Shown: piece by piece, positions 1,319-25,805 of the stretch
Position numbering within the stretch: position 1 is the first letter of the stretch
How the letters are laid out: each line of letters opens with the position of its first letter
DNA from: Vicugna vicugna
Taxonomy: Eukaryota
Length of the DNA stretch: 64,000 nt
Assembly (NCBI GenBank): GCA_013265495.1
Contig: MU058213.1
Span: 496,001-560,000, forward strand
Direction: 5' to 3'
Notes under the pieces: generated by a model
Told to the model about the DNA's origin: nothing
The model's input: only the letters and a program-made list of their open reading frames with translations
Database searches by the model: none
Translations under genes and position numbers: made by a program

Positions 1319-1362
<44 letters not shown>

Positions 1363-1365
1363 TTT
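1260..1365. repeat. Compound (TTTTC)n(TTTC)n microsatellite
   Basis: Directly visible; explains the low-complexity ORFs 1171-1389 and 1258-1476. Confidence 0.97.
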
Positions 1366-1440
1366 GTAAGGATTGTATTTTATTCTCAACTGGTATTTTT
1401 GTTGCCTTTAAGAACTTTGCATCTAGACAAATTGTCTTTC

Positions 1441-1509
1441 TTTTTTTTTTGTTTTACTTTTTTTATTGAAGTATAGTCAGTTTACAATGTTGTGTCAATT
1501 TCTGGTGAT
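1441..1509 (-). mobile_element. Strongly 5'-truncated lineage-specific L1 3' end
   Basis: TTTTTATTGAAGTATAGTCAGTTTACAATGTTGTGTCAATTTCTGGTG; similar ends recur near 23595, 42590, 52550 and 57925, and at the ends of the longer L1s at 33345 and 46445. Confidence 0.8.
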
Positions 1510-4500
1510 TAGTTCTTTTTGAGAATCATTGAAATACAGGTTAGGTTCCTCCACCCATGTGCGTACTTTTTGACCTGTAGAGATACACTCCCTCAGGTAT
1601 GTATACTCAAACACCTACACCTACTTGCTAAGGAAGAAACACAAACACACCAAGACAAGCTTACAAACTAAGATAACTGATACACAAAGATAACCCTTTA
1701 CAAGTAAACGGTTTCACATCTGGGCATATCTAAGCACTGATATCACTACAAGACACACAAGTGAACACAATTCCTGACGTGTTTGTGAGAAAATGGGTGA
1801 AAATGTGCTAAGCTGGGAGGAAATGAGGCCTGAGTGGACAAGAGTGAATGAGAGCGTGGTGGCAAATTGGGTTTATTTCTAAAGCATTCTCCTGGGGTTT
1901 AAAACACTTACTAGAGCTTATAGTTTTTTAAGCCAGGAGCAATTGTCTGATATGTATGTATTATTTCATATGTATATAGACTTGTGGGTAAGATTGTTGT
2001 AGTTCCTTAAGCCTATAATATAGCAGCCCCTTTGAGCACGATATCATTCATTGTAAAGTAGGGAATTTCCATGTGGAAAATTATAGCCAGCAAAATGTTT
2101 TGGTTCCCTGGGTGTGATGCTGTCATTTTAAAGATGAGTTGTTAGGCAGTATTTCCTTGATATGCGTACCAGTGAAAAGAGAGGAGGCCCCTCAGATGTA
2201 TCCATTATAGGTCTGGCATCCTCAGCCTTTATTCTGGGGCAAGCATGGCAAGATTAGATACAACCCCAGGATTTATTTCTGTTCATGGTGGGCAACTATT
2301 AACCCAAGTTGTATTTTTAAAGAACTGTTCTCTTTTTTTCCTCCCATCTTTGTTTCCTCTTTATTTTAATGGCCACTGGGGTGCTAGATTTGCTTGGCAA
2401 GAGAGGGAGTGGGTGGGGTGGGATTGGGGACAGGGGGAAGTGGGGAAAACTTAATTTGATTGGGAAATATCAATAAGTGATTATTTAAAAGTCACCCCCC
2501 TCCCCTGCTGCCCCTGTTTTTCCACTTGTTTGTCCCTAAGATCTGCAGTTTCTTGGAGAAAATCACAGAACCACACACAAATGGACCTTGTCAGATTTGC
2601 ACATTTTTACCTCTGCAAGGCCTTCAGTGCATTTCGGCCTTTCTGTTAGCTATCAGCACGCCCTCTATACCTGCTTTTTCTTTGCCAGTTTTCTTGAGCC
2701 TCCATTCCTCCCCCTGGTCAAACGATCTCTCTTCCTACTCTCCAGGACATTGGACCGCTTCCTAACTGATCTCCTGGGTATAGTTTGCGTTCCACCAGAG
2801 GACCCCTCATCACCGCGTTCAGCTTCTTAGTTAGCCTTTCCTTCTGCATATCCTCTGCTCTCTCTTTTTCCACTGCCAGATAGGAGTTCTGGCCTATATC
2901 TCCTTTTGGGTAGGATACCAGGGGAGCCTCTTCAAAGAACTGTTGTTTGAACTGGTCTCTGAAAGATGTAAAAGGATTTGAGCATGAGAAAAGTGAACAG
3001 TGTAATCTGGGGGCTGGAGGCAGAAGAGCGTGGAGTGTTTTACTTTGGCTGTAATACGGGGTGTGGGAAGATCATGCCTTCCCCTTTACTTTTCTTCCTG
3101 TGCTTTCCCTGGCTCCCTTCCCATCCTCCTCCCACCCCTTTTGAGCATGTACTTTGATCTCTCTACATGGTATACTGCTCCTCCCCCCTCTATCTAGCTA
3201 CATCTGTCCTTCCCTGACCACCCACGGGAAGTGATCTCTGAACTTCTGTAGCACTAATTGCCAGTACCGTTCTTTTGTCAGTTAATTATATACTGCCTTG
3301 ATTTAAAAAAGCAAAAACTTTATGTGCATGTCCCATTTTCCCAAATAGAGTTTATTAATAAAGTCAAGGCTCTTAGGTCTCTGGGAACACCACCCACTTA
3401 AGCTAGCCTACTAGAAGGTTCGATGCCAGGCTTGGGAGTTGTAGTGGGTTGTTAGTTAAGGCAGGCGAGCTCCTTGAAATGAACTAGAGCTGGAACCCAG
3501 GGCCGGGTGCTCGGAAAGTCCCTGTCCTTCCTCCCTCTGACTGCAGTTTGCATGGACTCTTCGGCTTCTTTCTGTGCCTCTGCTCCATTCCAGGACAGCA
3601 ATTTGGATTTTTAAAAATACTGTGCATTACAATTATTATCTATCTTGATTACTGAGTTTCTTGGTGTCCTGTTCAATTTTGCACCTGAAGCAAATGCCCC
3701 AGCCCTACTCCATTCTCCTTTATCAACTGGCTTTCTCTTGGCTTCTGCTTTTCCCTTAGCTTCAGCGTGAATGTGACTTTCATTTGCACTGGTGCTTGCT
3801 GTGATGCTACCTCCAGACGAGACTGGGTGATACAGGATCTTTCAACTTAAGTTTTGTTTCTCAGCTTTCCAAATTCCTGGAGAAGGACTGGATTTGACCT
3901 ATCTTGCTTGGGCTAAGGGTACCTCCTGTACCAAACATCTATGGGGTAAGGGGCATTGCTTAGGCTGAGCACTTCACAGCACCTGGGGAAGGGTGGTCCC
4001 AGACAAGGGGTTTGAGGTTGGTCATCCCCAAATAGCTTACTTTGGTACCAGAGGTCAGAGGGAAGTGACCATGTCTTACAGTTTTTGTGTCTGCACTGCA
4101 TCTAAGAGATTAACTGCTGTAAAGTAGGTGTGTCTCTTATTTAGTATTTGTTTTTTGCTATGACTCTCTGACCTTTTGACCATTAGGATTAACTTTTGGA
4201 CATAACAAGCTAATCAGAGCAATAGTTTTAATGTTAAAAATAAATTACTGAAATTTGATCACTATTTAAAAGATTTCTACTTTTAGAGCAATTTTTAAAC
4301 TAGAACTATTTTTAAACATTTTTGAAATTTATTTCCAAGTTGAAAAAGAATAGGGGAATAGAATATTGATAATCAATTAAATAAAAAGTGATAATAAGTC
4401 TTTACTGACTCTGCCCCCCAGCCCAATTAGGACATGGTAAAATCAGATAGTCTCATCTTTGATCTCAAATCTGAGTCCCACCTCCTTATTTTGTTATACA

Positions 4501-7500
4501 TTTAGTATCTGCTTTGTTGCAGGCACAGTGTTGGGCTGATAATAAAAAAGTAAGTGCCTGCCCTCAAAGGGCTCACAGCCTATGAGGAAACAACTGATTA
4601 TAATATGATGAGATAAATATTGATAGAAGTGTGAGCAGACTGGTGACTTAATACCTCTCTTTATTGCTTTTTTTGTGTACATTCGTCTCTCACTTTTTTA
4701 TATTCTCTTTTTCAGTCTTCATCTCTCACCCAGTCTCTGCCATTCATTATCTGTGTTATATGGATCACAGTATAGTAATATCTCATTTACCTAGCATGAA
4801 GTAATGAAGCATGAAGTAATGAAGTATTCCTTCATTTGAAGACAATGACTTTACTAGCTAAAATGTATCAGACACTTGCTCTTTGTCAAGAACTGTTCTG
4901 AGTGATTTGTATGTATTCATTTGATGGATTAATATATCAGCCCCACTAGTTAGGTACTATTATTATTCTTATTTTACAGATGAGAAAGTGGAGAGACAAA
5001 AGGTAGTTCACTGTCTTCCCAGGATTACAAATAGAAGGGCTATAAGAAGGTGATCTTTTTAAAAAATTGATTTTAGATGTCATTTTTGGTAAAATGCATT
5101 CTAAAGCTTTTCCTGGTCTTCTTAAATGAGGTTCTTCAAACTCAATTTAACCAAGATGATTTGGAGGATGTAGTATGTAGAATTCATTGTGTGCATCAAG
5201 TACTATTGTGTGCTGCTGACTTGCCTTCTGAGGTTTATAGGCTATTGGTAATTACATTAAATTGTCCCCCACTTTCATGTTTTAGTTGCTTTATAGTTTT
5301 TCCTTCTCTTTTCCCTCCAGCTGTGGCTTCTTGTTGCCAGTTACTGCCATTTCAGTAACTTGCTTCTGTAAATGTGTAGTGTGTAGTGACATGGTAGGAA
5401 GTATTTTATAGAGGTAGTATGATACAGGGTAAAAAGCGTGGATTTTGGGGTGAGGTTCACATCTCACATTCATTGTTGAGAAAGAAGTTATGTGTCCTTG
5501 GGCAGACTCTTTATCCTGAGCCTCAGTTTATTCATCTATGAAATGGGGATAGCAACTTTTGCAGAATTTATTATAAGGAGATGTATTTGATAAAGTATCT
5601 GGCGCATAAGAGGTATGCAAATAAAAGTTGATTCCTTTATGTTTATCTTCATTATAATGGAATATGGCCCCGTTGTTACTCTGAGAAGCTCAAGTAAATG
5701 AAAGAAATTTGTTTCTCAGATGTAAGAAAGATATAGACAGTTTTATTCTGTCACTTAAAAACATTAGTTTACAGGTGGTACATAAGTGTTAATTTGAGAA
5801 GTATTATCCTAAACTCCTATTTTGGGTCCTTGTACTAAGCTATCAGCAACCTCTCCTCTGCATTAAATTAAGTTGCCTTTTACTTCTTCCTGTGTGGCTT
5901 TCTTATTTCCCTTGTTTGCTATTAAAGGAAAAATATCCTTTAGCCCTTTTTGAAAGAACCTGTGCCAAGGCAGACTTTATGACCCTGGGGGAGGTAAACT
6001 AAGCTTCTTGGCCAATAGCAGTGATTTCTAAGACTTCCTTTCTTTCATCAGTTCTGCTTTTTTTCAGCTACCACCCTCTTAAATAGTCATTTGTTTTTCT
6101 TTGCACCCCCACCCCCTTCCATTTTTCCTTTCGCAGAAACTATCCCCACTAGCTGTGTGGTTCTCATTCTTTCAGTAGTTTTATATGATTCGAGTTTTAT
6201 TGTATGTGGATATATATGTCTCAAAGGCTATATTCTGGTAATTTTCATTGTTTATAGGAAACTCTCCTATCTTAATATGATAAAAAAAAATTTCAGTTTT
6301 TGCACTAGAGGTTTTGTGCCTTCTGTCTTGAAACCCTAATGAAAACCTGCAATACTCTCTCCTTACTGGACTGTCAGATGGTTCGCCACGTGAAAATAAA
6401 TACTCCAGCTCAAGTCACCAAAATTTTTTTTAAACAGTTACTGAGGCATGATTTACGTATCATAAAATTCATACATTGTAAGTATATAATTCAATAATAG
6501 GAAATAACTTTATCTATCCCATACTCTTTAGCGCTGTCTTTAGTCTGTAAGAGAACAGTCATCTTGCCCTTTCCCCTTTTTGTTCACAGGATCCCTTTCG
6601 GTGAATTGTGTGGGTGTTGCGCCTGGCTGCCACCTGGTTCCTTACAAGTACCCCACCTGTTGGTTATTGCTTCAGTTATTCATTCTGGATATCATAGACC
6701 CTCATTAACAGTGAGTTCTCTACAGTTAGGACACAGGGTCAAAGTGGTGGGACAGTGCCATTTTCCTGAAGAATGGCTCCTTTTTGCCATTAGCCGAGGG
6801 AACTCATTCTCTCATCTTAGTTATTCTCCCCCTGATGAGAACTGTACTCTAACTCCAGGGCTGTCCATCTTTTTGGTTGGCCCTGTGTCTCCCACCTCCC
6901 CCTTGACACCTCAGGACGCGTTATGCAAACTGTAGGTGTGTGCCTCCTCAAACATTATAGCTGTTTCTCCATGTTAGTGTGAAAATTAATATAATTGCTA
7001 TAGCAAAGCATGGTATGTCCCCAGTCCCCTGAAATTGATTAGAGTAAAACAAATGCTATCCCTGAAAATCACAACTGTGCTGTTTCTCTGAAGCTGTGTA
7101 TGAAATGCTTCACTGTGCAGGCGTGAGGTGTGGTCCACTGGGGAGCATGCGTTCACAGCAGGCGAACACCCGAATCAATGGCAAGTACTGGGGCTAAATG
7201 GTGTGGTGCATCCTGACCATGGTTGACCTTCAGAGTGAAAGATTGAGTAGGGTTGGAGGAGCTAGGAAAGGCTTTGGAGAACCTGGACTTGAGCTAGTCT
7301 TTGAAGGGCATGCAGAGTTTGGATAGAATGGAGAAGTGAAGTTTGGGGCTGAGGTAGGGAGGATTGTTGAGGAGAAGTGCAGAGCATCATGGGAAACAAA
7401 GGAGGCAAGGAGGTGAAGGTGAATTCAGAATATTTGTGAGACCCTGAGGAAGCCAGCCTGATTAGAGCCCAGGATTCCTAGTGATTGTTAATGAAAGTAG

Positions 7501-10500
7501 GAAGGTGGAGTTTTATCAAAATCACCCAAGAAACTGTCAAAATACAAGCACGTATAAGCACAAATAAGAAAAAATTCTCAGCAAAGGGATGAAATGTAAG
7601 AGCACTGTTTCCAGAGGCACAGTCGGGTGACTGTGAGCAAGGTCATCAGGCAGGAAAGCAAAAGCTTAGAGTCAGGCAAGGACTCTGCTTGTCCCTGGGA
7701 GCATTGTTTTTACTTCCTGTCTTTATAAGGCTCCAGAAGTTTCCCTGGGTACTGGAACCATTCCTAGGAAAGGGCAGGGTCCAGAAACACAAGGCTTTGA
7801 AGGCCTGCACAGAACTTCAGAACAGTTAAAATGATCTCTCTTGATATTTCCTTAGGGAAAAGGAAAAAACACCCCAGCACTGGCCCAACCCAAGTTTCAG
7901 AGTTTCAATTATACAGGGCCTTTGGTCCCAAGCTGTGGAGCTTGGGAGAATATATAATTATATGTCTCTTTGAACAATTTTTAATATTTTTCATATAAAT
8001 CATTAGGCTTTTTTTCAACTTAATTAATGTTCTGGAATTATTTTCATGGGGCTCTTTGATGGCTAATGCTTTTTGTTGTTTTGCTTTTCCACCAAAGCAC
8101 TTTTTGCTGTTACCTGCAGATGGCATGCATAATATTTGTTACTGTTTTTTCATACATGGCAGTAAAATGCAACAAATGATTAAGTTCTTTAAATTAAAAA
8201 TAAAATGAATGCACATAATACAGAACTCAAAAGGGACCACTGGATATCTAGCGAACACTCTCCCTTTATTTTTAGCTCTCTAGTTTGTCTCAGGTTCTTG
8301 TGGATCCTTCCGGAGTTATTCCCAAGGCACTTATTTTTGAAAGTTGAGTGATCTTAGACTTTTAGGTTTGGAAGGCCCATAGGGGTCATTTGTTAACCAT
8401 TACTGTTTCTTGTGGTAATAGAGAAAAGTGGGCAAGATTTGAGGAATGGACCTGGATGAGTGAATGGGGTTGAGTGACCTCTCTAAAATTTCTTAGAATA
8501 TCACCATCTGAAACTAAAGCCTTTATGAAGCCTGTTTTCCAAAGGTCTCTTCCCTAAATTCCAAATCTATTTTTCTAATCTTTTTTCCTTGTTCTAAAGT
8601 CTGATATCTTACAGTACTATCCTACACTTGAGTGTCTTGGTTTTAAATTTTAATTAAAATAGAGACAGTAGATTAGATACTTTTAAATTTATTTTTAAAA
8701 AAGAAAATGAAACAAAGAACAAGGCAGAAGTCCATGTGCTACTTTATACTTTATTACTATATTAATAAAATTTGGTTTTAACTTTGTGATTAAATTTTTT
8801 TGCATTCATTCCTATGATTTATGATGTATTGGGAATTCATGTTTTCATAGAAGCATTTCTAATTTTATTATGGGAATTTAGGAAATGATCTGTAAAAATT
8901 TGCTTTATTTGGCAACTTTTCAGGAAAGCATTTATTAATATGGTCATTCCACTTTAGCTTCTTTTTCCCTAGTTCACAAAAACCTTGGCCCATGTTTGAC
9001 TTCATTATTTACTTTTTTCGCTGCTTGTCTGTTCTGGTTTTTCAAGTCACTTTCCTAAAGTATTTCACTTTAGTATTTTTGTGCTTAGCTATCATGATTC
9101 AGCTATCATATTCTTCCTTTCTTCTTACGCATTGTTCATCTTGGCAGTGATGAGGAAGAGTTACCATTTTTTCCTCCATGATTGGGTTAAATATTGCTTC
9201 CGTAAGATGATAGGCTTTGAGAGCTAGAAGAGATCTGAAGCCATGGAGCCCCGGTATGAAGTCTATGAATAGGCTTCTTTAGGCAAATAGAATTTGCCAC
9301 TTCTCATCTGCTGGTAGTGACTGCCTAAGGATGGAGGCAGAATTTACACTCAGTGGGGAAAGGGCTGTTTGATTTGCCTTGTCTATCGTGGACCTGGAGG
9401 AGCCTGGTCAGAACTGGGGCATGTATTGGTTATTCTTCATTTAGTCTGGGAAAACTGAGAAGTGAAGTAACTTGCTCAAAGTCACGGGGTCCTGAAGTCC
9501 ATAGATCTACTGACTCCCAGCTCAATGCCAGGAGCCAAGTGCTAGGCTTTTACTCCTTAAGAATTCTGGAGTTCCTTCTGGATGCTTTGTTTTGCTTTGT
9601 TTTTCCTCCTTGAGTGGTAATTGAATTCTATTGAGTATTTTAGTTTGTTGCAGTTTGTTGTATCTTTAGGAAAGACTCAGAAGTATTCATCAGACAGTCT
9701 AAAGGTAGAAGATTCTCCTTATTCTAGCAAATAAAGGGGGTTTGAGTTATATTGTCTAGCTAAAAATAACTTTTTTCATTTTTTTAAGACTGAAAAACTT
9801 GCTATCTTATCCTCATTGCAATCCAGCCAGACCCACCCTCCCAAAAAGTGGGGGAGTAGAATTTTATTAGAAGGAATGAATTTATTAGAGCAAGATCAAA
9901 ACAAAACCTGATCTAGAAGGATTAAAACACTAGCAAAATAAGATAAGGTAGGGAGATACTTTAATTACTTTTTATTTTAGACATTTATGAACTATACTAT
10001 CTGGTATTTTGGCCAAGATCATGCATTATTTTGCATTTGCAAACACAAATAACACAATACACAACACAAAGGATAGTAGCTATATACTGTGTGTATGTTA
10101 GTATTTATTTTATGATCACTGATTTGGGAAATCTTCATATTAAAAAGTATCCTCTGACATTTTCCACATCTTGTTGGCTTATTTTGGTGGTTTAGATTAG
10201 TTCTGATAATCCCTTAGGGCACTTTTATCTCGTGTTTTGCCGAAACTTTGCCTTTTTAAAGTCTCTAGAGTGCTGGGACAGCTTTCCTACAAAATATTTT
10301 GATGACTTATTAACTACGAATCAGCAGGTCTTCAAGTATTGCCAACAGCAATTAGGTACATCTTCATCGAGGCACATTTTGTTGAGAATAGTTGATTTCT
10401 CCCAGAGTAGTTTCCTCATTTGGAGGTCTGTTTTTCTATATAAACACATTTTTTTGTTGAACAGTGATGCACTTCTTAATCCTTACTGTGGCACAACTGT

Positions 10501-12807
10501 TGTTACATAGCATTGCTAGAGAACAGGGTTCTGCATACCCACGGATGTAAAAAGGGAGTGGAGAAAGAGAAGAGACATCCATCCCAGTGATGGGTTCTTT
10601 TCAGTGTGCCACCTGTGCTGTGCTCTTATGATGGAAGGTGGCAGGCGAGGGTCTGAGGGAGAATCAGATTTACTTTCACTATATGCTCAAGTTTACTGGT
10701 CACCACTTTTGCATATTGAATGAGTTCAACAGTGTATCTAAAGAAAACTTTTAAAGTGTTGAGTTTGAATCTACATTTAACATTAACCCTACGATTGAAT
10801 GTTACAGTCTCTGTGCCCTGTTTGTGCCATGTCTTTGATTCCTGAGATCTTTTAAATTCCAGTTTGAGGAATGTTCATAAAGTGGGGAGAGAGAACGACA
10901 ATCTGCTCAATGCAATTTTCTGAAATTCTTTCCCCCTCCTTCCCGTGGCCCCCTTCCTCTCCCTGTGTCCTACTGTCCTCCAGTCCAGTGCCTCCCTTCC
11001 CCAGGACAGCACATTAAATGTGACAGGCTCTTAGTCAGTGTATACAAATATATATTCATTTGAAGATGGGGAAATTGGTAAGGCTGAGAAAGAGTATTTC
11101 AGAATGATGGAAAAACTCTGGTCTAAAGTCCAGGAAGAGATGAAACTGAGGAACAGTGATGCCGTTCACCTTTTGTTCACTGCATAAAACTCAATTTGAT
11201 CTCGGCATGATTTCTGTTAGACCCAGCCTAGTTTATTTTAGAACTTTGTGTATAGTTCAGTGCTTACTAACTCAGTGTATTAAGACAAATCTTGCAAGAG
11301 GAAGAATGAGTCATAACGATACTTCCTTTGGGAGGGAAAGAGAAAGAAAATCCTCAGTCTGTACATTATATACTTGGAATGGATTCAGCATTTTGATTGA
11401 TGGTTAAGCACTGATAAGCTTTCCCTGCAAGCCACCTCATATCATATTTGGTTTTGTCCACAGTATAACTGGTGGAAGGATCTTTTAGGTTAACCAGCAG
11501 AGATAAGGAGTTCTATAACTTTATTACCCTGAGAGACTTATGTCATTTCTATTTTAAGATTTTTTTGAGTTTGCAACAACTTTTAGAAAAGCTTGAACAT
11601 TTCCTAGTCTACCCAGTCTATTAAACAAACAAACCAAAAAGAAGACTGAAAAACATTTGGTGGTAAGAAACTGGGTATGCTAAAGGGTGTGGCTGGTGTG
11701 GCATTTATCTAAGCACAGAATGGATTCTTCTCTGACCTCACCTTGTATCTCTGATGCTGCAACTCCACCGAGAAGAATAAAAAGAGATGAGGTGGGCTAT
11801 GACTGGGAGGCGGTTTGACTGCTTGGAGGTAGAAAAGGAAGTGGAGGTATTATTCACATGGGAGCCACAAAGTCTTTCAGTAGAGTCTTGAAAGATTGAA
11901 GTGCTATGAGTAACCTCTGAAGTATTTCTCTTAATAGTCACAAAAATGACTTGGCTGCTTTCTACTTTAAGGTTGCCCTCATTAACCTGCTTCCAATTAA
12001 ATCTATTCTTTGTTGTGGCCCTAACAAGTTTTTTCTGGACTACCCTCAGACTTCAGACTTTATTTTCTTTCCTTGTTCTTTTGAGATCTGTAGATCCCAA
12101 AATAAATCAACGTGACATCAGTAGCAATGGCAGGAAAGACAGGGCTACTTAGCTAATCTCATACCTGTTGAGGGTTAGTAAGTTTCCAGGGAACTTTTAC
12201 ACAGAATAGTCAACCACTGTTTTCCCAAACTTATGTGTGCAGAGCAACTACGTCACTCAGATCTATGTCCACATCTGGTCAATCATAGCATCCTAAGAAC
12301 TCCACAAAAATCATTAGTGTACTGCCTTTTAGCTTCATTGTATAGAAAGGCAGTGAACAGAATAGAAGGATAGATTTAGCATCCAGTTTATTTCCTTTAA
12401 AAAAGTATTGTTACTGCAAAAGTAATACGCATTATATACAACTAAAATAAAATGGTTTTCATTTTTTAGATGGTAAATACTGTATGCATAGTGCTTTGAA
12501 TGCAGTTAACATTAAGAACATTTTCTGGTTATAATTAGTGTTACCTAGAATCATAAGCTCATGAAAGGGAAATAGGACTCCTAAACGCCCTTGCAGTTGA
12601 GGATTGGCTGCACATTATCCTTGACAGATATTCACACTCAGCTTGTGCTTTAGCAATGCCAGATAACTTTCTTTACTCCCACCTTCTCCATTGAAGAAAA
12701 TGTTCCTCAAACCAACAGAGATGAAACTAAAGGCTGACATTAAATAGGAGAGCATTTAGTTGCTTTAAATGTTAAAATCTCCAGGTAGAGAGAACTTTTT
12801 TTTTTTT

Positions 12808-13037
12808 CATCATATCATTCCATTTATGTGAAACTTCCGGAACAGGCAAATCCATCCAGACAGAAAGTAGTCTGGGGGTGCGAGGGGCTGGGGGGTACTG
12901 CTAACAGATGTGGGGTCTCCTTTTGGGGTGACTCACAACAGTGTGAATGTACTAAATAACCCTGAATGGTACACTTGCCAGTGGTCAAAATGGTGAATTT
13001 CACATTATGCGATTTTATCTCGATAAAAAAATTTTTT
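12808..13037 (+). mobile_element. Old L1MB-like 3' end carried inside the 3' part of the FAM50A retrocopy
   Basis: ATTCCATTTATGTGAAACTTCCGGAACAGGCAAATCCATCCAGACAGAAAGTAG...TGTGAATGTACTAA...GGTGAATTTCACATTATGCGATTTTATCTCGATAAAAAA resembles the reverse complement of the L1MB-like copies at 825-1124 and 57395-57700. Confidence 0.8.
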
Positions 13038-13210
13038 TCAATGAAACAGTGCAGGTGCTCCAACTGACATGGACGTTTCTTTATCATAAAAGAAAAAAGC
13101 AGTAATGACAGTGCCGGGGCAGCAGATGATTGGCCCATCCTGTCTCAGAGAGAGGGCCAGGTGCCCAGAGTCCTGGAGCGTGGGGAAAGGGGGACCGTGC
13201 ACCTCCACCT

Positions 13211-14227
13211 TCACCGGATCGTGTACTTGTCCCACTTCTTCTCAGGGTCGTAGGGCTCCCAGCGGCTGGCGGGGAAAATGTGCTTGTTCTTCTCATACCA
13301 GCTCCTCAGCACCACCTTGCCTGCGTGCGACTCATCCTTCTCCACTGTGGCGTCACTGAGCAGCCGCACATCATCGTGAACATCGAAGTTAAAGAGAGGC
13401 CCACTCTTTCCTCGTGCCTTGGTGACAATGAAGTCGTAAAAGCTGTGGTGGTGGGATATGATTAGGTCCTCCTTGATGTACATGAGCTGCTCCACTCCTG
13501 CTGACCTGAGCTCACTGAAGTCTTTGCGCAGGATCTCCAGTGCCTTCTGCAGGAACTGCTGCATTGTGTTGCCCTTTTTCATCTTGACTGTTCGCCGGTG
13601 TCCAGAGCCATCCCAGTAACTGAACGTGATTTCAATCTCCTCGCTCTTGATCTTCTCCTGCTTGGCTTCCCACTCCTGCCGGAGCTCTTCCCGGAGCCGA
13701 TTCTCCTCCTCCTCCCGGTCTCGGTCAGGCAGGAAGCTGGTGTCCACATCTGGATTCTTCCCCAGTTTCCTCTTCTTTGTGGTGACCTCTTCCCTTTCCA
13801 GCTCCTCCTCATACATAACCACCTCTTCCTCCTCCTCGCCTGCCTCCTCTTCTTCCTCCAGTGTAAAGGACAGGCTGGAGATCTTCCGCTTGGCCTCCTT
13901 CTTGCGCTCCTCTCGCAGTTTCTTCAGCTTCAGCTGCAGCTCCTTCGACTGCTCCTTCTTGGCCAGCTGCTTCTCCCACTCCTTCACCAGTGCCTGCTGC
14001 TTCGCCTTCATGTCATTCAGGGTCACCAGACCCACAGTGCTGGACTTGAGCTCTGCCTCCACGGCGTCATAGTGTGCAGAGAACTTCTTGTCAATGTTGG
14101 ATTTCATGATGTTCTCCTCGGCGATCCTCTGCTTCATTTGCTCCATCTGCTCGCGCTGCTTCTCCCGCTTCTTCATCAGGTGCATGGCGCGGCCCTCCTC
14201 GCTCGCTGCACCCTTGTACTGAGCCAT
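13211..14227 (-). CDS. FAM50A: FAM50A/XAP5-like protein, 338 aa, single exon (retrocopy ORF)
   Basis: [24 protein letters not shown]...[17 protein letters not shown]...[14 protein letters not shown]...[21 protein letters not shown] is recognisably FAM50A; no stops or frameshifts; Kozak GCCGCCATGG. Expression cannot be seen from sequence. Confidence 0.88.
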
Positions 14228-14280
14228 GGCGGCGGCGGCGACAGCGAAGGCGACAACGGCCCGGCCGAATCTCAGGAGCC

Positions 14281-14300
14281 GCGGCGGCGGCGGCGGCGGC
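14281..14300 (-). repeat. (GCC)n tract in the CpG-rich 5' UTR of the retrocopy
   Basis: GCGGCGGCGGCGGCGGCGGC on +; a second GGC run at 14228-14240 abuts the start codon. Confidence 0.9.
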
Positions 14301-14571
14301 CGTGCAGTCAGCTCGAGAGAACTTATTTAAAAATTGTTTCCAGATTAATTCTGAAACCAGGCCCAAACAAAAAAGAAAAAAAAGAATGTTGATTTGAAAT
14401 TTTTTAACCAAAGCAAATTGAAGCAGATACTAAGTTTTGGATGGTGAACCACATTCAATTCAAAAGACTAGTGGATATATTTATCTAGAGGAAATATTTT
14501 GATCCTAACTACTATTATCTAATATATATCAACATTGAAATGCTTTTATTTTTTAAAGATAAACATATATA

Positions 14572-14680
14572 GGCGGGAGGGTATAGGTCAGTGGTAGAGT
14601 ACGTGCTTGGCGTGCATGAGGTCCTGGGTCCAATCCCCAGTACCTCCGTTAAAAAAAAATAAGTTTAAAAAATAAATAAA
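14572..14680 (+). mobile_element. tRNA-derived SINE (camelid Vic-1-like)
   Basis: GGGAGGGTATAGGTCAGTGGTAGAG (A box)...GGGTCCAATCCC (B box), A-rich tail, flanked by ATAAACAT(A/G)TA repeats; four related copies in the window. Confidence 0.85.
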
Positions 14681-14722
14681 TAAACATGTAATCACTGAAT
14701 TTTCTTTAGCGTGGAAGGATAA

Positions 14723-15147
14723 TGAGACTACCAGTCAGTCAATATCTGAAACAAAAAAAAGACAAAGCTGAGCTTAATACCTACTTTAATAAGAGAGAGC
14801 TATGCTGGCTAGGCACCTTCTCTGAGCAGAGGAGACCAATTTCTTATACAGAGTTTTTGGGAAGAATGGAATTCTGGGACTGGCAAACTTTCTGAGGCCA
14901 TAGTGACCTCATCTGCAGAAGCATGATTATTTGAGTCTGTTGATTGGTTGGCTGGCACTCAGAGGAGTGTTTACCAGAGTGAGTCTCTTCCTCATTGGTG
15001 GACCTTCAGAAGTGAGAGGCTTATGGTGATCGATTGCCTTGCAAAGGCAAATCGTTGATTTTTGTTGCTATTGTTGTTGACTAATACTTGTTACTGTGGC
15101 TACAGAAAAATCAATCTTTTCTATGTTTGTGGGAACTTTAATTCTCA
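14723..15147 (-). mobile_element. Putative solo ERV LTR
   Basis: TGAGA...TCTCA inverted termini; minus-strand order CCAAT (14994-14998, 14943-14947), TATAAGAA (14841-14848), ATTAAA (14785-14790), then a T-rich stretch. No clear TSD; family not recognised. Confidence 0.55.
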
Positions 15148-15194
15148 ATGTCAAATACGTATAATTACTTGTATAAAGCAAGCATATACTTAAA

Positions 15195-15875
15195 ATATTT
15201 TTGAGGTATAACTTAAAGGAAGAACATTTTAAGTGGACAGCTCAATAAGTTTCTGCGTATGTGTATACTTGGGTAACTATCACCCAGTTCAGGATATAGT
15301 GTATTTTCATTACCCTAGAATGTTGTCTAATACCCTCACCTAGCTATTCAGTACCCCTCTTAGCTATTCTGATTTCCAACCCCATGGACTTGTTTTGACT
15401 GTTCTTGAATTTCATGTGTGTGGAAGCATGTAGTATGTATTATTTTATGTCTAGCTTTTTATATTCCTTGCAGCATAATGCACGTGAGATTCATTCATGT
15501 TTTGCATATATAGTTGTTCTTTAATACTAGGTAGTATTCTGTTTTATGACTCTTCCTCAATTCATTTGTATATTCTCTTGGAAATGGACATTTGGGTCAT
15601 TTTCAGTTTGGAGGTATTATGAGTAAAGCTGCAGTGGACATTTTTGTACGTCTTATTAACACAAACACTATTTCTCTTGGTTATATGGCTAGAAGTGAAA
15701 TTGCTGCATCATTGTGGTATGGGTATGTTTAGTTTTGGTAGATGCTACCAAATAGTTTCCCAAAGTGGTTGAATCAATTTGTACTCCATTAGCAAATTAT
15801 GAGTTTCAGTTGCTCCACATCCTTGTCAACACTTGGTATTGCCACTCTTTTTTATTTTAGCCATGCCAGTAGGTA
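15195..15875 (-). mobile_element. Old L1 (L1M-type) 3' fragment
   Basis: GAGATTCATTCATGTT...GGACATTTGGG...CAAAGTGGTTG...TTGCTCCACATCCTTGTCAACACTTGGTATT are typical antisense L1M motifs. Confidence 0.75.
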
Positions 15876-16204
15876 TACGTATTTTTATTTTTAAAAAGGC
15901 AAATTTGAAGGAAAAAAGCCTGTGCCATTTCAGCAACTTAACATGAGAAACTTAAAAATACAGCGTTAGCCGGTTTAATCAAGTATTAACTTTCCTATTA
16001 ATTCTTAGCCTAATTTATTCATTTATTTAAAAATAAGCCTTGATTTATTTCTTAAACAGCTTCTTAACTTAGATTTGATCTAGGAAGAAACATCCTAAGC
16101 AAAGCTACTGTCACTGTAAAGTTAAGACGTTAGTGTTTCAATAACTGTGAATGAATGACTCCATGTTAACTTAAGTGACTTTCAGTTTACCCTTAGCCTT
16201 GAAA

Positions 16205-19150
16205 TTAATTATATTTGCTATTTTTTAGTTCTTGGCATGTGCCATGATCTGTTCTCTGTTGAGGATGCAGTAGTGAACAAAACAAAGTCCCTGACTGAAT
16301 ACAGTTTAGATTTTAGTGACAAAATATAGATAATGAATCAGTAAATATATAGCATGTCAGATAATAATATAGAGGGAAATATAGGATAAGAAAATAGAGA
16401 TTGCCTAGTGCAATAGTTTGGGGGGCCTGTGGGATATTTTATATATAGTGGACAGGGAAGTCCTTTCTAATAGTTGACATTTAAGCACAGACCTTAAAGA
16501 AGAGAGAGAACAGGTCATTTAGCTGTTATAGGGATGAGTTTTCCAGGTAGAAGAAACATCAAGTGTAGAAGCCCTCAGGTGAGAGTGTGCCTCGTTTGTC
16601 AGAGGAAGAGCAAGGTCACTTAATGTTGCTGAGGTCTTGTGAGCAAAGTGGTGAATGGTTGGAAATGAGTTGGGGCTTGAGGGGGATCATGTAGGGTCTT
16701 GTGGACCATTGTAAGGCCATCTGGCTTTTATTCATATTGAGATAAGATGCCATTAAAAGATTGTGAGTAGCAGAATTAATGGAATCTGGCTGGTTCACAC
16801 ACAAACTTGTATACACATGTTCATGGACACTATTTGTAATAGTCAAGAACTGTCTTTCACCATCTGAATGGTTAGACTGCAAAAAATACATACCATGGAA
16901 TCCAGTTTAAAAAGTGAACTGTTGATACACGGCAACTTGGATGAATCTTTACATATTTATGCTTAGTGATAACAGCCAATCCCTAAGGTTACATATGATG
17001 CTATGCATACGGCACTTTTTAAAATGACTTAATTTTAGAAAAGGGGGGCAGATCAGTTGTTTGCCAGGGGTTAGAGAGGGACATGAATGTGGTTGTAAAA
17101 GGACAACATGAATCTTTGTGTTGTTGCAACTGTTCAGTTTCTTGATTATGGTGGTGGATACACAAATCTAAAAGGTAATAAAGTTGTATGGAACATACTA
17201 CATACATGTATACACAAATATGAGAACAAGTAAAACTGGGGAAATCAGATTAAGATCAGTGGACTATGTCAATGTCAACATGCTCATTGTGATATACTGT
17301 AGTTTTACAAAATGTTACTGTCAGGGGAAACTGGACAGCATGTTCAAGGAATCCCTCTGTGTTGTTTCTTCCAACTGCGTGAGAATCTCTAACTCTCTCA
17401 ATAAGAACTTCAGTTAAAAACAATAAGATAGCTCTGGTACCTTTGCAGCAGATAGACTGTAGACTGTATGGGCATTAGAGTGGGGGCAGGAGCCTGAGTT
17501 AGGAGGCAATTGCAATAACCCAGGAAAGAGATGATGATGACTTGGACCAGAGGGGAAGCAGTGGAGATGGTAAGACATGATGTTTTAAAGATAGAGCCAA
17601 ATGTTTGATGGATCAGATGTGGAGTGTGAGAGAACTCACAGTTAATTCCAAGAGTTGTAGACTGAGCAACTAAAAGAATGGAGTTGCTGTTAATTAAATG
17701 GTAAAAACATGGCAAGAGCAGGTGTGGGGGAGAAAATTAAGAGTGTTTTGTACATTCACTTTTGAGATATCTGTTATCCATCCAAGTAGAGATGTGACAG
17801 AGGTAGTTATTTTTAAGTCCAGAGTTTGGGAAAGAAGTCCAAATTGGAGCTGTAAATGCAAGAATTGTCAATGTATGAAATCACCTAGGGAGTGAGTATA
17901 GAAAGAGAAGCTGCCAAAGAACTAAGTCCTGGGGGGCACTCCAGCATTTAAAGGTAGGGAGAACGAGGAGGAACTAGCAGAGGAGAATAGGGTGGGGCAG
18001 CCAGAGAGAGAAAGGGGGACCAAGGGAAAAATCAGTGTCCAAGTGCCCATGGCCAAGTGAGAAAAGTTTTTTAGGATGAAAGAATTCATGTGTTGTCAAA
18101 TGCTGCTTCTCATAGGTCTTGTAAGACGAGAACTAAGAGGTGACAGTTAGATTTGGCACCAGGCAGGTCATTGCTGACAAGATCAGTTTGGATGGACTAA
18201 GTGCTGGGAATGAAAGCCAGGTTGGAGAAGGTTTAAAAGAATGAGAGGGAGAGGACTTGGGGTACTGAAAACAGACAGTTCTTTCAAAGAGTTTTGCTAT
18301 AAAGAGGAACCAAGAAGTAGCCTGGAGGAGGACATGAAGGGTCTGGAGGGGGATATGAAATCAAAGGAATGTTTGTTTTTAATTTGGGAGATACATTACA
18401 GTCTCTGTGCTGATGGGCATGGTCCCATAGAGAAAAGGCACAATTATTGGAGTGATCTTGAATAAATGAGCATGGGTGAGATCTGGTTACAGGTAATGTG
18501 ATTGGCTTTAGATAAGAATCTGGACAGCTTATCTATAAAAACAAGAGTGAAGGTAGAGTTCATGGGTACAAATTCAGGTCAGGTGATAGACCATAGCAAT
18601 GGGAGTGTAGATGTCCTTTTATGATTGCTTCTATATTCTCAGTGAAATATTAAGATAGTGTCTTCAGCTGAGAGTGACAGGTAAAAATATTAAAGATTTG
18701 AAGGAAAAGAAGAGGTAAAATAGCCCTGTATGATAGAGGGAGAGTGTGGGAGAGTGACTGGACTAGGGAAATGCAGTGGGAATGTTAGGCAGCACTCTTT
18801 GATGTTAGTGGTGACAAATATTAAATATGGCTTGTCAATTTGTGTGTTTTTCTCCTATTTTATCTGCCACCCTGGCAAATTTTATCTGAGGAGTAAGAAG
18901 AGTGTTTTAACCAGGATTGGGGTTTTGCTAGAGGAGGAGTTCCAGAGAGGGAAGATCAAAGAAATTGAGAGTTAGGGAGGGGTACAATTTTTGGTAATGA
19001 TTAGAACTAGGTTACAAGCATCCGGATGTAGAGTGGAGGTAGGGCGGAGCACTGGATCATCAGAAGAGAGAAAAAAGGCCAGGGAACTTGGAGACTAGGT
19101 GTTGGAAGGGTCAATTATGTGGATGTTGAAGTCACAGTGATTACTGGTGC
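16205..19150. mobile_element. Degenerate L2 interrupted by an L1M 3' fragment (about 16790-17415)
   Basis: Purine-rich L2-like motifs (GACATTTAAGCACAGACCTTAAAGAAG, GAGATGATGATGACTTGGACCAG, GTCAAATGCTGCT); the inner segment has L1M motifs (CAACTTGGATGAATCTT, GTGGACTATGTCAATGTC). Confidence 0.65.
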
Positions 19151-21651
19151 CAAATTAATGATCATCTCTTCCTCAGCAGTTTGACTATAAGTATTATAAG
19201 TCCTGGAGAGAAAATAAGTTAGGAGCAGTAATGGTGTAATATTTCTTTTAGATCATGGCAGATTATTTGCTCGTTTCACTTTTTAGAGTCAGCTCTTTGC
19301 AAAAGATGATACCAGATATAGCGTTAACAAAGACATGTGCTTTTGTTTAGCCTACAAATACATTTAAAGCCCACAGCCAGCATTTGTTTTATTTAGTAAT
19401 TTTTAATTGGTTTATTTATCTTGTTTAGCTAATTTGATATTGTTATGGGTTTGTTCAAAAATTGTTATATTAGAACAGTTCACAATATGGACCTCAAAAC
19501 AAACCATTATGAAAATATTAACCAGAACCTTTTTTTTAGACCTAGAAATATGGATGGCAAAGGACCATGTTCAGCTCTTCAGAAAAAATAGATATGGAAT
19601 TTAAAAAACATTATTAAATACTAACAAATTAACATGAGGTTTTATCTCCTTACAGCCAATCTGTGAACAAATCCTTTTGACTTTGCTTCTGAAATATACA
19701 GCATGTTTTTTTCCATTTGTCTCTATATATATGTACAACTCCAGGCAAAGCCACCATTGTTTCTCATCTAGATTGCTGCTGGTAGCAGATTCCTAGGCTG
19801 AGGGAGCTGCTAGACACCTTGAGATCTTGGCTCAGAAATCACCTTTCAGAACAGTCTGTCTGAACCACTTAGAGTAACTTTCCTGACCCTCATTTCCCCC
19901 ATGGCATTGTCCTGGGTTTACCTTTAGCATGTTTATTACTGTCTGTTCTTAACTTGGTTTTTTTTGTTCATTGTTTTTTGTCTATACGCCACCTTTAAAA
20001 TAAATTAGAGCAAGGAACTTGTCTGTCTTGTATACTGCTTATGCCTATTGTCTGGAACAAGTCAGTTCCTGGTACAGGAGATGTTCAAAAATACTTGTTG
20101 AATGAATAGTAAATATACTGGAAAACAAATTATCATCTGGGAAACTTGACACATTAAAAAAGTTTCATATCTGGTGGGTCAGGTTGGTTTTAGTACCCAG
20201 GGGTCCTAGGAGAAGCCAGTGAGGAAAAGATGCCTCACACATCTGAAGACTAAGACTTGGTGTCTTTAGAGAGGAGATTCATTTCTTTACTCAAATCTTC
20301 ACTAGAGCATGTCATTAATTTCAGAGATCTGATGACTGATTATCAGATTTTTTTTAATTTTGTTTTAACTGGGGAAGATTAGACAGCAGAGAACGCTGAG
20401 TAGCAAGCCCAAATGGTTTGACACTGAGGGAAGAAGAGATAAATAATGCAGATGCTGTAAAGTGCTAGCAGAAGTATCAAAGACTAATTATCAGTGCTTT
20501 TATAGTTGTGATAAGGGAAACGTGGTGCAAAAGAGACACTAGATACCTGGGGGAGTTAGAGGAAACTACCAAAGAGGGAAAGGGGAGACTGATATATGAT
20601 CCAATTAAATCAAATTTGGCTTAACTGTGTGCCACCAGGTACTGTACCTGGTGACGGCATCCCAGGAAGAAATGAGATCTAGGAATCTCTGCTCTTCAAG
20701 CATCTTACAGTGTCCAGCAAGAGAGACAGACGAAAGATGACCTAGTACAATGTCATTGTTGGTTTGACATGAGATAGGGGGTGTCTTTGGGAGTAGCTGG
20801 CCAGCCAGCCCTGGAATAGGGTTTCATGTGGTGGTCATCAGCTTAGCTTTTGCAGAGTTCAATCCACCAGAAGTTACCTAATTTCTTTAAAAGTGTCCCA
20901 GACTAACCACGCTCATAAAATACTGGTACATAAGTCAAAACATGAATGTATTAATTTACAGTAAGGAAAGCTAGATGAATAGCCAAGTTTTAATTAGAAG
21001 ACTACTTGATGAGCATGGAGAAGAATAAGGGGAGTTGAATTACTAAATGTTGATTACGTCAGGTATAAGCCATCTGATATTTCTTCATAGGAGGCATGTA
21101 ACTGCAGTGGGACCAGCCAGTCACATCTGTTGGTCAGGATATCATGCCTCCCTTATGTTTAATGAACACGGCCACATCTTGTTTGATGAACCCCATTTCT
21201 TTGTATCTGCATGCTTACTGCCTTCTTTCTCTGGTTGTGTTACCACCATTCTGTAGTCATTTGTTCTATCTACTTTGGGGGGAATCATTTTTCTTATCAT
21301 ATATATGTTGATAGTACCAGTTACACCCTTACATTTTGAAGATACCCATCTTTCCTAGGGGTGGGAATGGAGAGCAAGGAAGACTTCTGGGAATGTACGT
21401 ATGCATCTTAGCTAAGCCTTGGAAGAATATGTAGGGGTTTGGATGAGGACAGAGGTAGATAAGAAAGAGTGCATTAATTGCAGCGAGAAGGAACAGAATA
21501 AACAAAGGCATAGAGACCCAAAAGCTTGGGGTCTGTTTGGCCTATCGGCTGTGTGACGGTGAGCAGTTGGAGATCATATTAGAACGCTAGCTGGAACCCG
21601 GTTGTGAGCTGTGTATCTCGTGCTGAGGAATTTGGACTTTATCTTGTAGGT

Positions 21652-21881
21652 CAGGGGTTGGCAGACCTTTTCCAGTAAAGGGCCAGATGGTAAATATTTT
21701 AGGTTTTGCAGACCATATGATCTCTGTTGCATTTATTCAGCTTTCCCATTGTAGCACAAGAGCAGCCGTGGACAACACAGGAGTGAATGAATGTGACTAT
21801 GTTCCAATAAGATAGTACTGACAAAAACAGGCAGCAGGCTGAATTTGGCCCACTGACACTGTAGTTTGCCTAACCCCACTG
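21652..21881. mobile_element. MER58A-like hAT-Charlie DNA transposon
   Basis: CAGGGGTTGGCAGAC...GTAAAGGGCCAGATGGTAAATATTTTAGG...TGTTCCAATAA...GTAGTTTGCCTAACCCC with degenerate terminal inverted repeats. Confidence 0.8.
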
Positions 21882-22884
21882 AAGGCACTGTGAGTCTCTA
21901 TTAGGTTTTTGAACCAGAGAACAATGTGACCACATGTGTGCATTAAAGAGGGAACAGATTAAGAGGCTGAACTCTGAGCTTGCCCTGTTGAAATAGTGAT
22001 GAAATGGGGGTTACACCTCATATCTTTAGAGAATATAACTCTGAATGTATTTCTGATTTCTTTAAAATATAGTCAGTTTGAAGATCTTACTCTATAAAAA
22101 AATGTGAAACAAATAAAATAAGTGGAGATTGGTTAGAGTAGAGAAGTGTTTCTCTTAAAAAATTATTTTGGATCCTAGTGTTAATTTTTGCAAAAACTGA
22201 ATGGCTGTTGATGGGAATACGGTACTAACTGCTTCAGTAGGGGCTCTCTTTGGGTTCATTGTGCCTGCCTGACCATCTACCTTGTTTAGATCTCAGAGAA
22301 ACCTTCGGTTACAAAACGCTTTGTCTCCATTTTGTGCAAATGTATCATTTAGGTATTAAGAAAGCCTCTGTATTAGTTTAGAACAGTTAAAGCTGTTCCG
22401 CCTGGTGCTGGTGCAGTGATAAATATAAATGTCAATACAGCATCTGAAATCTCACAACAGGGCTTCGTTTTAAGTGATCCAAAAGATCTAGAATATAGCT
22501 GCTAATTTTTAAAAATTATCTAAATAGAAAGCTAAAATTTAAAACGTTTGTGAAATGAGATGGCTGAGAATCCTTCTGGAAATTAGCAGGGTCCTGGAAG
22601 TCTTGGGTGAAAAATAAGGAGGAGTCTAGAGACAAGTAATAAATGAAAAGGAAATTGTTTAATGGAATGAAGACTTCTGGCCCAGAAAATTCCAGGAGTT
22701 TCCTTATGTTCCTCAGTACTACCTCAGCTAACTGAAATCCAGTGAAGCAGTGGCAGACTGAAAAAGAAAAGCATACCATAGCAGTAACTCCCACAGACTT
22801 TGGGGACTATTTTAACAAAGTTCTTCATCCTGTGAATAAGACAAGATGGGCGGCCACGAGAATTTACGAAGTGAGCTCCTCTAG

Positions 22885-23071
22885 AGCGGTGGCCCTCAAA
22901 GCCTAATTCCTGACCGGCTGCATCAGCACCACCTGGCAGCAGGTTAAAAATGCAGGTTTTCAGCCCTACCCTAGACCTACTCAGTCAGGAAACTAGGGGT
23001 GGGGCCCAGGGGCGGTGTCCTAACGAGCCCTCCAGGGAGCTCTGATTCACTCTGAAACTTGAAAACCACTG
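22885..23071. mobile_element. MER5A-like hAT-Charlie DNA transposon
   Basis: GCATCAGCACCACCTGG...AAATGCAG...CCCTAGACCTACT...GGGGTGGGGCCCAG...TTGAAAACCACTG. Confidence 0.8.
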
Positions 23072-23581
23072 CTCTGAAAGTGATGGAGAATTAAACAGTC
23101 TGGTCATACCAGAATTTCAGGTTAAAAAATTTTCTACTTCTGCCTGAAAGTTTGCCTAACTTATCTGGCAAAACTAATCTTTGCTTATATGCAACCTTTT
23201 AAAAAATGATTTATGAGAATATTATGCTTTTGAAAATCTACTTCTGTGCTGTATAAATTATGAAATGCTATTTTTATGAGGTGTATTTTACTTTAGCTTG
23301 GGGATTTTAAAGAAGGTCCTATAGATCCAGTATAGATTTAAAATACTTTTCTAGTACACTGGTTGAACCTATTGAGAATTTGTTCCCCTTCCGATATACA
23401 GATGTCAGAGGACAAGCAAGAGAGGACATGTGATCTGGGGGACAGAGAACAAAGCAAAGCACTGCTTCCAGAGCGTCCCTTCCTAAGGAGTCTCTTGCTA
23501 ATACTTGGAACATTGTCAGTACACAGATAATCCTCAATAAAGGATGAGAGTAGAGAGGGAAGGTACAGTCAAGTTCGAGAG

Positions 23582-23765
23582 TCTTTTGTTGTTGTTTTTG
23601 AAGTATAGTCAGTTTACAATGTTGTGTCGGTTTCTGGTGTACAGCACAATGCTTCAGTCATAGAGGAACATACACACATTCGTTTTCATATTCTTTCTCA
23701 CCGTAAGTTACTACAAGATATTGGATATAGTTCCCTGTGCTATACGTTATGGACTTGTTTGTCTT
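23582..23765 (-). mobile_element. 5'-truncated lineage-specific L1 3' end
   Basis: TTGAAGTATAGTCAGTTTACAATGTTGTGTC...AAGATATTGGATATAGTTCCCTGTGCTATAC. Confidence 0.75.
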
Positions 23766-24019
23766 ATGAGAATCTGAGAATCTGAACATTTCTGAGCAAC
23801 ATTAGGTAGGATGAGCACCAGCCATTTGCTTTTTATTGAAGCTTCTGGGAAACTTTGGTATATAACCTGTAAGTTCTTGCCTAGGAATTGGCAAAATTTC
23901 ATTATCCGAACTTGAAGGAGATGCCCTTTCCATTGCTTTGAAAAGGGGAAAACAAGCCAAAGAAGTAAATTCCTTAAAAATTTAAGTGAAAACCACTTTG
24001 ATATGTTTCCCCCTAGAAA

Positions 24020-24950
24020 ATGCCATAATAAACTAGTAAGAGTTAAAAGAAAATGGAAGAAGAGATTTTTAACATATAACTGACAAAGATTTGTATCCAG
24101 AATATAGTAAAGAGTATCTGTTTTTTTAAAAAAGATAAACAGCACAGTACAAAAATGGGCAACAGATTCTTCACAGTCTAAGGAACATGACTGAGTCCAA
24201 GTGACTAAGGCCAAGAACATATGAAAAGATGCTCAACCTCATTATAACTCAGCAAAATGCAAATTAAAACCACAGTGAAGTATCATTTCACATCCACCCG
24301 AATGAGTAAAAATAAATTGTCTGCTAATACCAACAGTTAGCAAGGATAAGTAACATGAAATTGTCATGCATTAAATCTTCTAGGAATATAAATTGGTAAA
24401 ACCACTTTGAAAATAGTTTGACATTACCTAGTAAAGTTGAGTAATACCATATCCTTTTTCCAGCAATTCTATTCCTAGGTTTGAATAACTTGGAGAAACT
24501 CTTGCCCATGTATACCAGGAAGTAGGTAACAAAATTGTTTACAGCAGAAAACTAGAGCAGGAAAGATTGTAAGTAATTCTGGTGTTCATTTATACAATGG
24601 ACTATGGTAGAGAAATGAAAATAAAAGAAGTACAGATCGAAGCATGAACCCAAAGCAATGTTGAGTGTAAAAAGCAGGTCACAGAAGGATACATACTATA
24701 TGAATATATATATTCATATATATATATATATATATTCACATACATGTGCAAAAAAAGCAAAACTAAAACTGTGTAAAGATATATACATTTAAGGTAAAAC
24801 TGTAAAAGAAAGAGAGAATGATTAATTCAAAATTCAATACAGTGGCTTCTTCTTTTGGGGAGAGAGATACAGCAGGAAAGGGGAACGTGCGAGTACTAGT
24901 AATGTTTCCTTTCTGAGGCTGGGTTGTGTGTTCATTTTGTTATTCTTTAA
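24020..24950 (+). mobile_element. Old L1ME-like ORF2 end and 3' UTR fragment
   Basis: CATATGAAAAGATGCTCAACCTCATTA...AAATGCAAATTAAAACCACAGTGA...CCAGCAATTCTATTCCTAGGT. Confidence 0.75.
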
Positions 24951-25170
24951 GCAGCACTGTAAACATGCCTGGATTTTACTCTGGGATAAAGGGCTGTCTC
25001 TTGGTCACTCTGTTAGTCACTCTAAGAAATGTCATGTTCCCAAACAGCAGATCTGTTAGTCACTGTAAGGAATGTCGTGTTCCAAAACTATAGACCCTGG
25101 GTGGCATGTAACATTACCTTTGCCCCGATACCTCATTCCGATCATCTTGTGCATTATAGTGCCTTAGTAG

Positions 25171-25805
25171 TAGGGTGACCATTGGATTTATGGCCCATAC
25201 TGGAACACTTGAGAGTGGAGTGAGGGGATGCTTAAAATAATGAAAACAATATGAATTTCTGTGAAGTATTTATTGAACAAGAAGTTGGCTCTACTATATA
25301 CTATAAACCTCAAAAATAAATTATATTAAACCACACTAAAAACCTTTTGTATTGATTGTCCAAACATTTAAAACTAGCAAAAGCTAAATAATTACTCTTG
25401 GTACGAATTCATGTCCTTTTTCCAGTTTCTTACCCTTATCTGTCTCAAATACCATGTCATTGGTATTTTTATGAGGGGAGTATTTTTTCAAAATGGTCTT
25501 ATATTTTTCCCCTAAAATTGCCTGCCACCTTCTTTAAAATTGCATTTTGTGGTCAATCTATTTGAAAGTGCTGGTACTTTCTTTTGAATCTTCTCTGCAG
25601 ACTATTATTTTTAACTGAGAAAATACACTCTCAGGATACTTGGTTATTGTCTTAAAGTGGAAATGCAAAGGAGGTTTACCAAACTTAGTAATGGCAACAG
25701 TGATAATAATTATTTGTTCAGAAAAGCAGGAAAAAAATCGAGGATAACTGCTAAACCAGATGAGGTGCCAGAACAGGTGTAAGCCAGACCTGTCTTGGGC
25801 AGTTA
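25171..25805. mobile_element. hAT-Tip100-like (MER96B-related) DNA transposon relic
   Basis: Begins TAGGGTGACCAT...TTTATGGCCCATACTGGAACACTTGAGAGTG; right boundary and family uncertain. Confidence 0.5.

Follow-up and report, generated by a model that had tools for sequence, protein, structure and literature searches.

The window analysed here, a stretch of 64,000 nucleotides of Vicugna vicugna DNA, contains eight coding exons of TMOD3 on the plus strand (27067 to 58621) and, on the minus strand at 12788-14328, a full-length processed copy of FAM50A with a 14-bp target-site duplication and a 12-nt poly-A. The copy is antisense to TMOD3. A distance of 12.7 kb separates it from the first coding exon of TMOD3 downstream (26993-27192, plus strand, ATG at 27067), which is preceded by a splice acceptor ending at 26992. 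The TMOD3 exon compared was 98% identical to mammalian TMOD3, and 81-89% identical to the named TMOD2 rows among the matches listed. No tropomodulin exons were found to the left of 27067 in the window, and outside the copy, in 1-12787 and 14329-27000, there was no 200-nt segment with a GC content of 55% and a CpG observed/expected ratio (o/e) of 0.6. TMOD3 presumably has a non-coding first exon. Because the ATG exon opens with a splice acceptor and neither a tropomodulin exon nor, outside the copy, an island lies to its left in the window, the copy most likely sits antisense within the 5' intron of TMOD3, with the TMOD3 promoter to the left of the window.

Anatomy and parentage of the FAM50A copy

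The duplication at the 5' end of the copy (14315-14328, minus strand) is identical in 13 of 14 bases to its partner at the 3' end (12788-12801, minus strand), which overlaps the 12-nt poly-A tail (12796-12807, minus strand). On the minus strand, the sequence at the insertion point is TT|AAAT, which resembles the L1 endonuclease target. Between the duplications, all on the minus strand, lie a 5' UTR from FAM50A (14228-14314; 87 nt, GC 79%, 17 CpG, two GCC runs), an intronless, open FAM50A frame of 338 aa (13211-14227), a proximal FAM50A 3' UTR (13040-13210, left boundary approximate) to which the tail of the Aotus model P0005 corresponds in translation, and a 3' read-through extension (12808-13039) that includes an old repeat fragment and a CATAAA signal at 12823-12828. 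The continuous frame of 338 codons without introns, the poly-A and the duplication are features of a processed retrocopy and confirm the status that the initial annotation had given to this locus. In dromedary gene models, extra residues are present after E37, S194 and L240, where the copy reads through continuously. These positions can be read as introns of the parent, so that codon 37 (at 14117) would mark the end of the parent's first exon, a boundary taken from the insertion after E37 in the dromedary model P0122.

The copy thus extends ~230 nt into an old repeat past the proximal 3' UTR and ends ~15 nt after CATAAA. The repeat fragment, which we take to be L1M-like, is matched at two other places in the window, with 73% and 80% identity. 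Because the extension lies inside the duplications and the tail of P0005 aligns weakly into it (E 3e-5 within a 400-nt subject), it probably arrived with the parent's mRNA. The camelid germline may therefore express a longer form of FAM50A mRNA with a repeat-containing 3' extension. On this anatomy, L1 would have copied a FAM50A mRNA with a long 3' UTR over its full length.

The protein encoded by the copy is FAM50A (PF04921) and is 99% identical to camelid FAM50A P0128, the reference parent used here (a single sequence recorded under C. dromedarius, C. ferus and 'n=3 Camelidae'). Copy and P0128 have Q78 in common, a residue present in no non-camelid row of the alignments compared, and on these grounds the sequence itself points to a camelid. 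Copy and P0128 differ by four substitutions (A11E, R84W, E102K and P258S) and by one codon deletion (a Lys lost near 107); P0128 additionally has a 5-residue splice insertion relative to the copy. At all five changed places, the parent residue is kept in 9 of the 9 other mammalian proteins aligned; in a wider protein set, armadillo has H at 84, so that this site is not invariant, and a dromedary model is without residue 11. R84W (TGG) fits a CpG transition, taken as CGG -> TGG, and A11E would be a C>A transversion that removed one CpG at 14195-14197, inside the CpG-rich stretch. The exact protein of the copy has no match in the public collections searched. No camelid 'FAM50A-like' copy was found among the members listed for 7 clusters (15 of 284 in the largest), which is no evidence of absence, and no published paper on the locus was found in literature judged by title and abstract start.

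The CpG-rich 5' end

Dense CpG and (GCC)n runs at the 5' end of the retrocopy, in CpG-poor surroundings, had been noted in the initial annotation, and this description holds. The 215 nt of 14100-14314 have a GC content of 66.5% and 26 CpG (o/e 1.10), compared to an o/e of 0.16 in the left 2-kb flank, 0.26 in the right 2-kb flank and 0.25 in the whole window. None of the 289 background windows (non-overlapping, 215 nt, outside the copy) matched the 26 CpG (mean 1.9, highest 17, next 8), which confirms that the CpG density is real and not a matter of chance. All 26 CpGs fall within 14119-14302, in the part that matches the first exon of the FAM50A parent, i.e. the 5' UTR and codons 1-37 (14117-14227, minus strand; 9 CpG, o/e 0.95, including the site of A11E), and 10 of the 26 are carried by two GGC/GCC runs (14228-14239 and 14281-14298). 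With thresholds of 200 bp, GC 50% and o/e 0.6, the 5' end of the retrocopy is a CpG island, and 13835-14325 averages GC 0.60 and o/e 0.80.

We judge the GCC-rich leader to be inherited from the FAM50A parent because its in-frame translation can be aligned, from 14299 on, to the leader translations of two FAM50A models from pig (P0006 and P0154; 78% over 55 aa, first coding residues included). The 256 nt upstream of the copy have 25% GC and 0 CpG, and no GC box was found in 14001-14700. Since this upstream sequence is AT-rich and without CpG, and no GC box is present, the half of the parent's promoter that is transcribed came with the copy and the upstream half did not.

Beyond the 5' end of the copy, at a distance of ~250 bp, lies a tRNA-derived SINE (14571-14665, plus strand), which is 83-88% identical, in aligned columns, to three other copies in the window (28960-29041, 36389-36465 and 56795-56882) and is probably older than the FAM50A copy. 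Two of the four SINEs were called tRNA-Ala by ARAGORN; these calls were rejected as tRNA genes. A donor-like site at 14584, within the SINE, could have closed an alternative first exon of TMOD3 but was rejected as background, with 150 equal or better sites in the 64 kb. The SINE at 14571-14665 has 4 CpGs, compared to 1, 1 and 0 in the three other copies; as a sign of local hypomethylation this was set aside, being a single case in a right flank with a window-like o/e of 0.26. The only other island-like stretch found, 61000-61400 in the last intron of TMOD3, has GC 60%, 21 CpG and o/e 0.58, with TGCCGC at 61192 and GGCCGC at 61099, and has no further match within the 64 kb. Blocks of strong GC skew (reaching +0.43 and -0.28) at 17001-19000, 30001-31000 and 54001-56000 are probably old repeats or low-complexity sequence.

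Age, constraint and CpG retention

Copy and parent differ by 4 changes in 809 non-synonymous sites, a divergence of 0.49% (95% CI 0.13-1.27%). At 7e-9 mutations per 5-year generation (PMC7331169), this corresponds, if the copy is neutral, to an insertion age of 3.5 Myr (1.0-9.0); if it is partly constrained, its insertion would date further back and the retention of its CpGs would say more. The insertion would accordingly have occurred a few million years ago in a camelid lineage, antisense, in what is most likely the 5' intron of TMOD3. In a comparison of 12000-14560 with sequencing runs (24 rows), the share of its words found was 0.76-0.81 in 14 DNA runs, which carry 4 organism labels. These values were rejected as proof of a shared insertion, because the flanks make up 41% of the stretch compared and the parent exons can supply much else. 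Among the RNA runs, in which reads from parent and copy are pooled, the share was 0.20-0.28 in five and 0.05 in one, values that we count neither for nor against expression of the copy; four rows had next to no words of 12000-14560.

Five copy-only changes at conserved sites make relaxed constraint on the protein of the copy likely. Under parent-like constraint, five changes have P = 0.001 if 0.8 are expected and P = 0.11 if 2.5 are expected. A frame that is still open is what chance would allow, with P = 0.54-0.62 at 0.4-0.5% divergence and P = 0.27 at 1.1% (indel rate assumed). Ordinary full-length processed pseudogenes have the same duplication, poly-A, lack of introns, parent UTRs and copy-only damaging changes as the copy, which differs from them in its open frame, a difference expected about half the time at such an age.

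CpG sites mutate 5-15 times faster than background. Given a starting count of 28 CpGs, which is an assumption, a fully methylated copy would keep 24-27 of them at 0.4-0.5% divergence and 20-25 at 1.1%; 26 were observed. The alternative raised in the initial annotation, that CpG retention could equally reflect youth, thus accounts for the retention quantitatively. At the age of the copy, the loss expected even with full methylation is 1-4 of ~28 CpGs, and because so few would be removed at ~0.5% divergence, CpG retention barely bears on imprinting. A direct count of decay, though an underpowered and indirect gauge of methylation, uses CpG positions where a transition alters the protein: of the 12 such non-synonymous targets in codons 1-37 none shows a transition, and of the 47 in the remainder one does (R84W), which makes 1 of 59 in the whole frame. 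Full methylation predicts 0.4-0.7 transitions among the 12 targets, so that zero is unremarkable (P = 0.5-0.64). The likelihood ratio relative to full methylation is 1.3-1.9 for an imprint-like rate at a divergence of 0.4-0.5% (up to 4 at the upper bound) and 1.5-2.3 for an unmethylated island (up to 6 at the upper bound); the transition counts in codons 1-37 and in the whole frame lean slightly to low germline methylation, and so slightly towards the proposal of the initial annotation.

These observations appear compatible, above all, with an ordinary young retropseudogene methylated on both alleles, to which we assign a probability of about 0.7. The 5' end would be CpG-rich because it is the first exon of the parent, which belongs to a promoter CpG island, and has had too little time to decay; separated from the upstream half of its promoter, the copy would most likely be methylated on both alleles, silent or barely transcribed, and drifting neutrally. 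Points against this reading are the frame, which is open over its full length, the slight lean of the transition counts, the variable site 84 and the share of mouse retrogenes of this layout that are imprinted (4 of 7). An inherited island that escapes methylation on both alleles (or only in sperm and testis), supports weak biallelic or testis transcription and possibly a divergent transcript towards TMOD3, and has no imprint, is unlikely. The parent's leader is included in the copy and the absence of transitions in codons 1-37 is in its favour, whereas the missing upstream promoter and GC box, the AT-rich flank, the relaxed protein constraint, the lack of an exact protein match in the collections searched and the background frequency of donor-like sites such as 14584 count against it. 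Of 104 human intronic islands that are absent from mouse and have a paralogue elsewhere, 77 are more than 80% methylated, a base rate in favour of the methylated pseudogene, 15 are less than 20% methylated, which speaks for the unmethylated island, and 12 lie between (PMC4122923).

Methylation and the prospect of imprinting

X linkage of FAM50A in camelids is expected from the conservation of the eutherian X. The layout of the locus had been likened to that of imprinted intronic retrogenes, and much of this likeness stands, namely the copy of a gene that is presumably X-linked in camelids, the antisense orientation and the 5' CpG island, with an intronic position that is only probable. Zrsr1 (U2af1-rs1, in Commd1), Nap1l5 (in Herc3), Mcts2 (in H13) and Inpp5f_v2 share with the copy the 5' CpG island and, presumably, the X-linked parent and the position in a host gene, and antisense orientation is common to the copy, Zrsr1 and Nap1l5. 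However, the four mouse retrogenes are expressed, and three of them predate the rodent-primate split while Zrsr1 is common to mouse and rat; the copy, known here from its sequence, is ~0.5% from its parent and appears to be under relaxed constraint.

The three features (X-linked parent, intronic site and 5' CpG island) predicted Mcts2 (PMC1796624). Of the 7 expressed mouse retrogenes that combine them, 4 are imprinted and 3 biallelic, and the features are stated not to be sufficient (PMC3080381). The non-imprinted Chmp1b, 4933416C03Rik and 1110033J19Rik have the same three features, which are present or likely in the copy, and are expressed and biallelic in newborn brain (PMC3080381). These three cases also favour an unmethylated, biallelic island.

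Potential retention of a methylation mark was assessed by ZFP57 motifs. The copy has no TGCCGC and two GGCCGC variant motifs on the minus strand (14189-14194 and 14296-14301), 107 bp apart. In mouse, motif pairs less than 38 bp apart occur in all ICR peaks (PMC4756812); no such cluster is present in the copy under this mouse-derived rule. At least two motifs were found in 337 of 1000 shuffles, i.e. the number in the copy is at chance level, with no enrichment over shuffles. In layout the copy resembles the imprinted intronic retrogenes; because the motif cluster is missing and the likeness is confined to layout, it cannot be counted as one of them.

A stable imprint would require that TMOD3 transcription in growing oocytes methylates the island, that sperm leave it unmethylated, and that a KRAB-zinc-finger protein keeps the maternal mark, resulting in paternal expression and perhaps altered TMOD3 polyadenylation; we consider this highly improbable. 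All three features that predicted Mcts2 are present or likely in the copy (PMC1796624), its orientation is that of U2af1-rs1 and Nap1l5, mouse oocytes contain Tmod3 mRNA (PMC4931587), and ZFP57 recognises the Commd1 ICR, which has no TGCCGC, through GGCCGC (PMC4756812), the variant of which the copy has two. Against this, the 4 of 7 figure was drawn from expressed retrogenes (PMC3080381), and of the 104 human intronic islands, which were not selected for expression, the passages covered name RB1 alone as imprinted (PMC4122923); the spacing of the motifs in the copy exceeds that in mouse ICR peaks and their number is matched by a third of shuffles, and CpG retention has little power at the age of the copy. 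Imprinted retrogenes vary in constraint, Inpp5f_v2 being partly neutral (PMC3107425), and because of this variation relaxed constraint lowers the odds of an imprint without excluding it. Host transcripts can be cut short by transcription from an intragenic island, whether or not methylation is involved (PMC7470969).

A transient or placenta-only maternal mark, whereby host transcription methylates the island in oocytes, sperm remain unmethylated and full methylation follows after implantation with no lasting allelic expression, appears just as doubtful. Host expression in mouse oocytes (PMC4931587), the link at Gnas between transcription through the island and oocyte methylation (PMC3080381), a CpG-transition count that is slightly low and the lack of a tight ZFP57 cluster to retain the mark all agree with it; however, a core of ~200 bp without the upstream promoter may not escape methylation in sperm. 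Overall, the step from layout to candidate germline DMR finds no positive support, given the youth of the copy, its relaxed constraint, the missing upstream promoter, the absence of a <38-bp ZFP57 cluster and the insufficiency of the three features, and nothing was seen that would set the copy above other young intronic X-derived copies as an imprinting candidate.

PPP1R26P1 in RB1 intron 2 is likewise a retrocopy that brought CpG-rich sequence into an intron (PMC3839921). In that case retention is informative, since the island has persisted beyond the anthropoid radiation and sister copies between genes have decayed (PMC3839921); the FAM50A copy, unlike PPP1R26P1, is too young for a contrast with decaying sister copies.

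FAM50B (X5L), cited as an analogy in the initial annotation, is a retrocopy of the same parent, which is X-linked in human (PMC3141237). The analogy is weaker than was suggested there: FAM50B is imprinted in human, a point in favour of a stable imprint here, but is biallelic in mouse and opossum and lies outside host introns (PMC3141237). FAM50B is also ancient, being 77% identical to its parent in human, whereas the copy arose independently, is young and has 99% identity with FAM50A of camelids. The boldest possibility, an imprint being born in a camelid-only FAM50A copy 1-9 Myr old, with a maternally methylated first-exon island that is active on the paternal allele while the protein decays, is a long shot. 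If imprinted, the copy would rank with the youngest retrocopies for which imprinting has been described, and FAM50A, the parent of FAM50B, would have given rise to imprinted copies twice independently. This would suggest that imprintability rides on the parent's first-exon sequence and host transcription, without selection on the protein, and the locus could show whether an imprint forms immediately when a copy enters an intron transcribed in oocytes, or only after selection. As the ordinary young retrocopy that we favour, it matters little, apart from being a possible camelid phylogenetic marker, a trap for FAM50A read mapping and a record of a longer 3' UTR.

A separate cluster of toothed whale proteins (P0026 and P0137-P0143), named FAM50A or 'FAM50A-like' and mostly 329-332 aa long, includes several on contigs of 102-104 Mb, apart from toothed whale FAM50A proper, which is on contigs of 127-136 Mb. 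This cluster is possibly another independent retrocopy.
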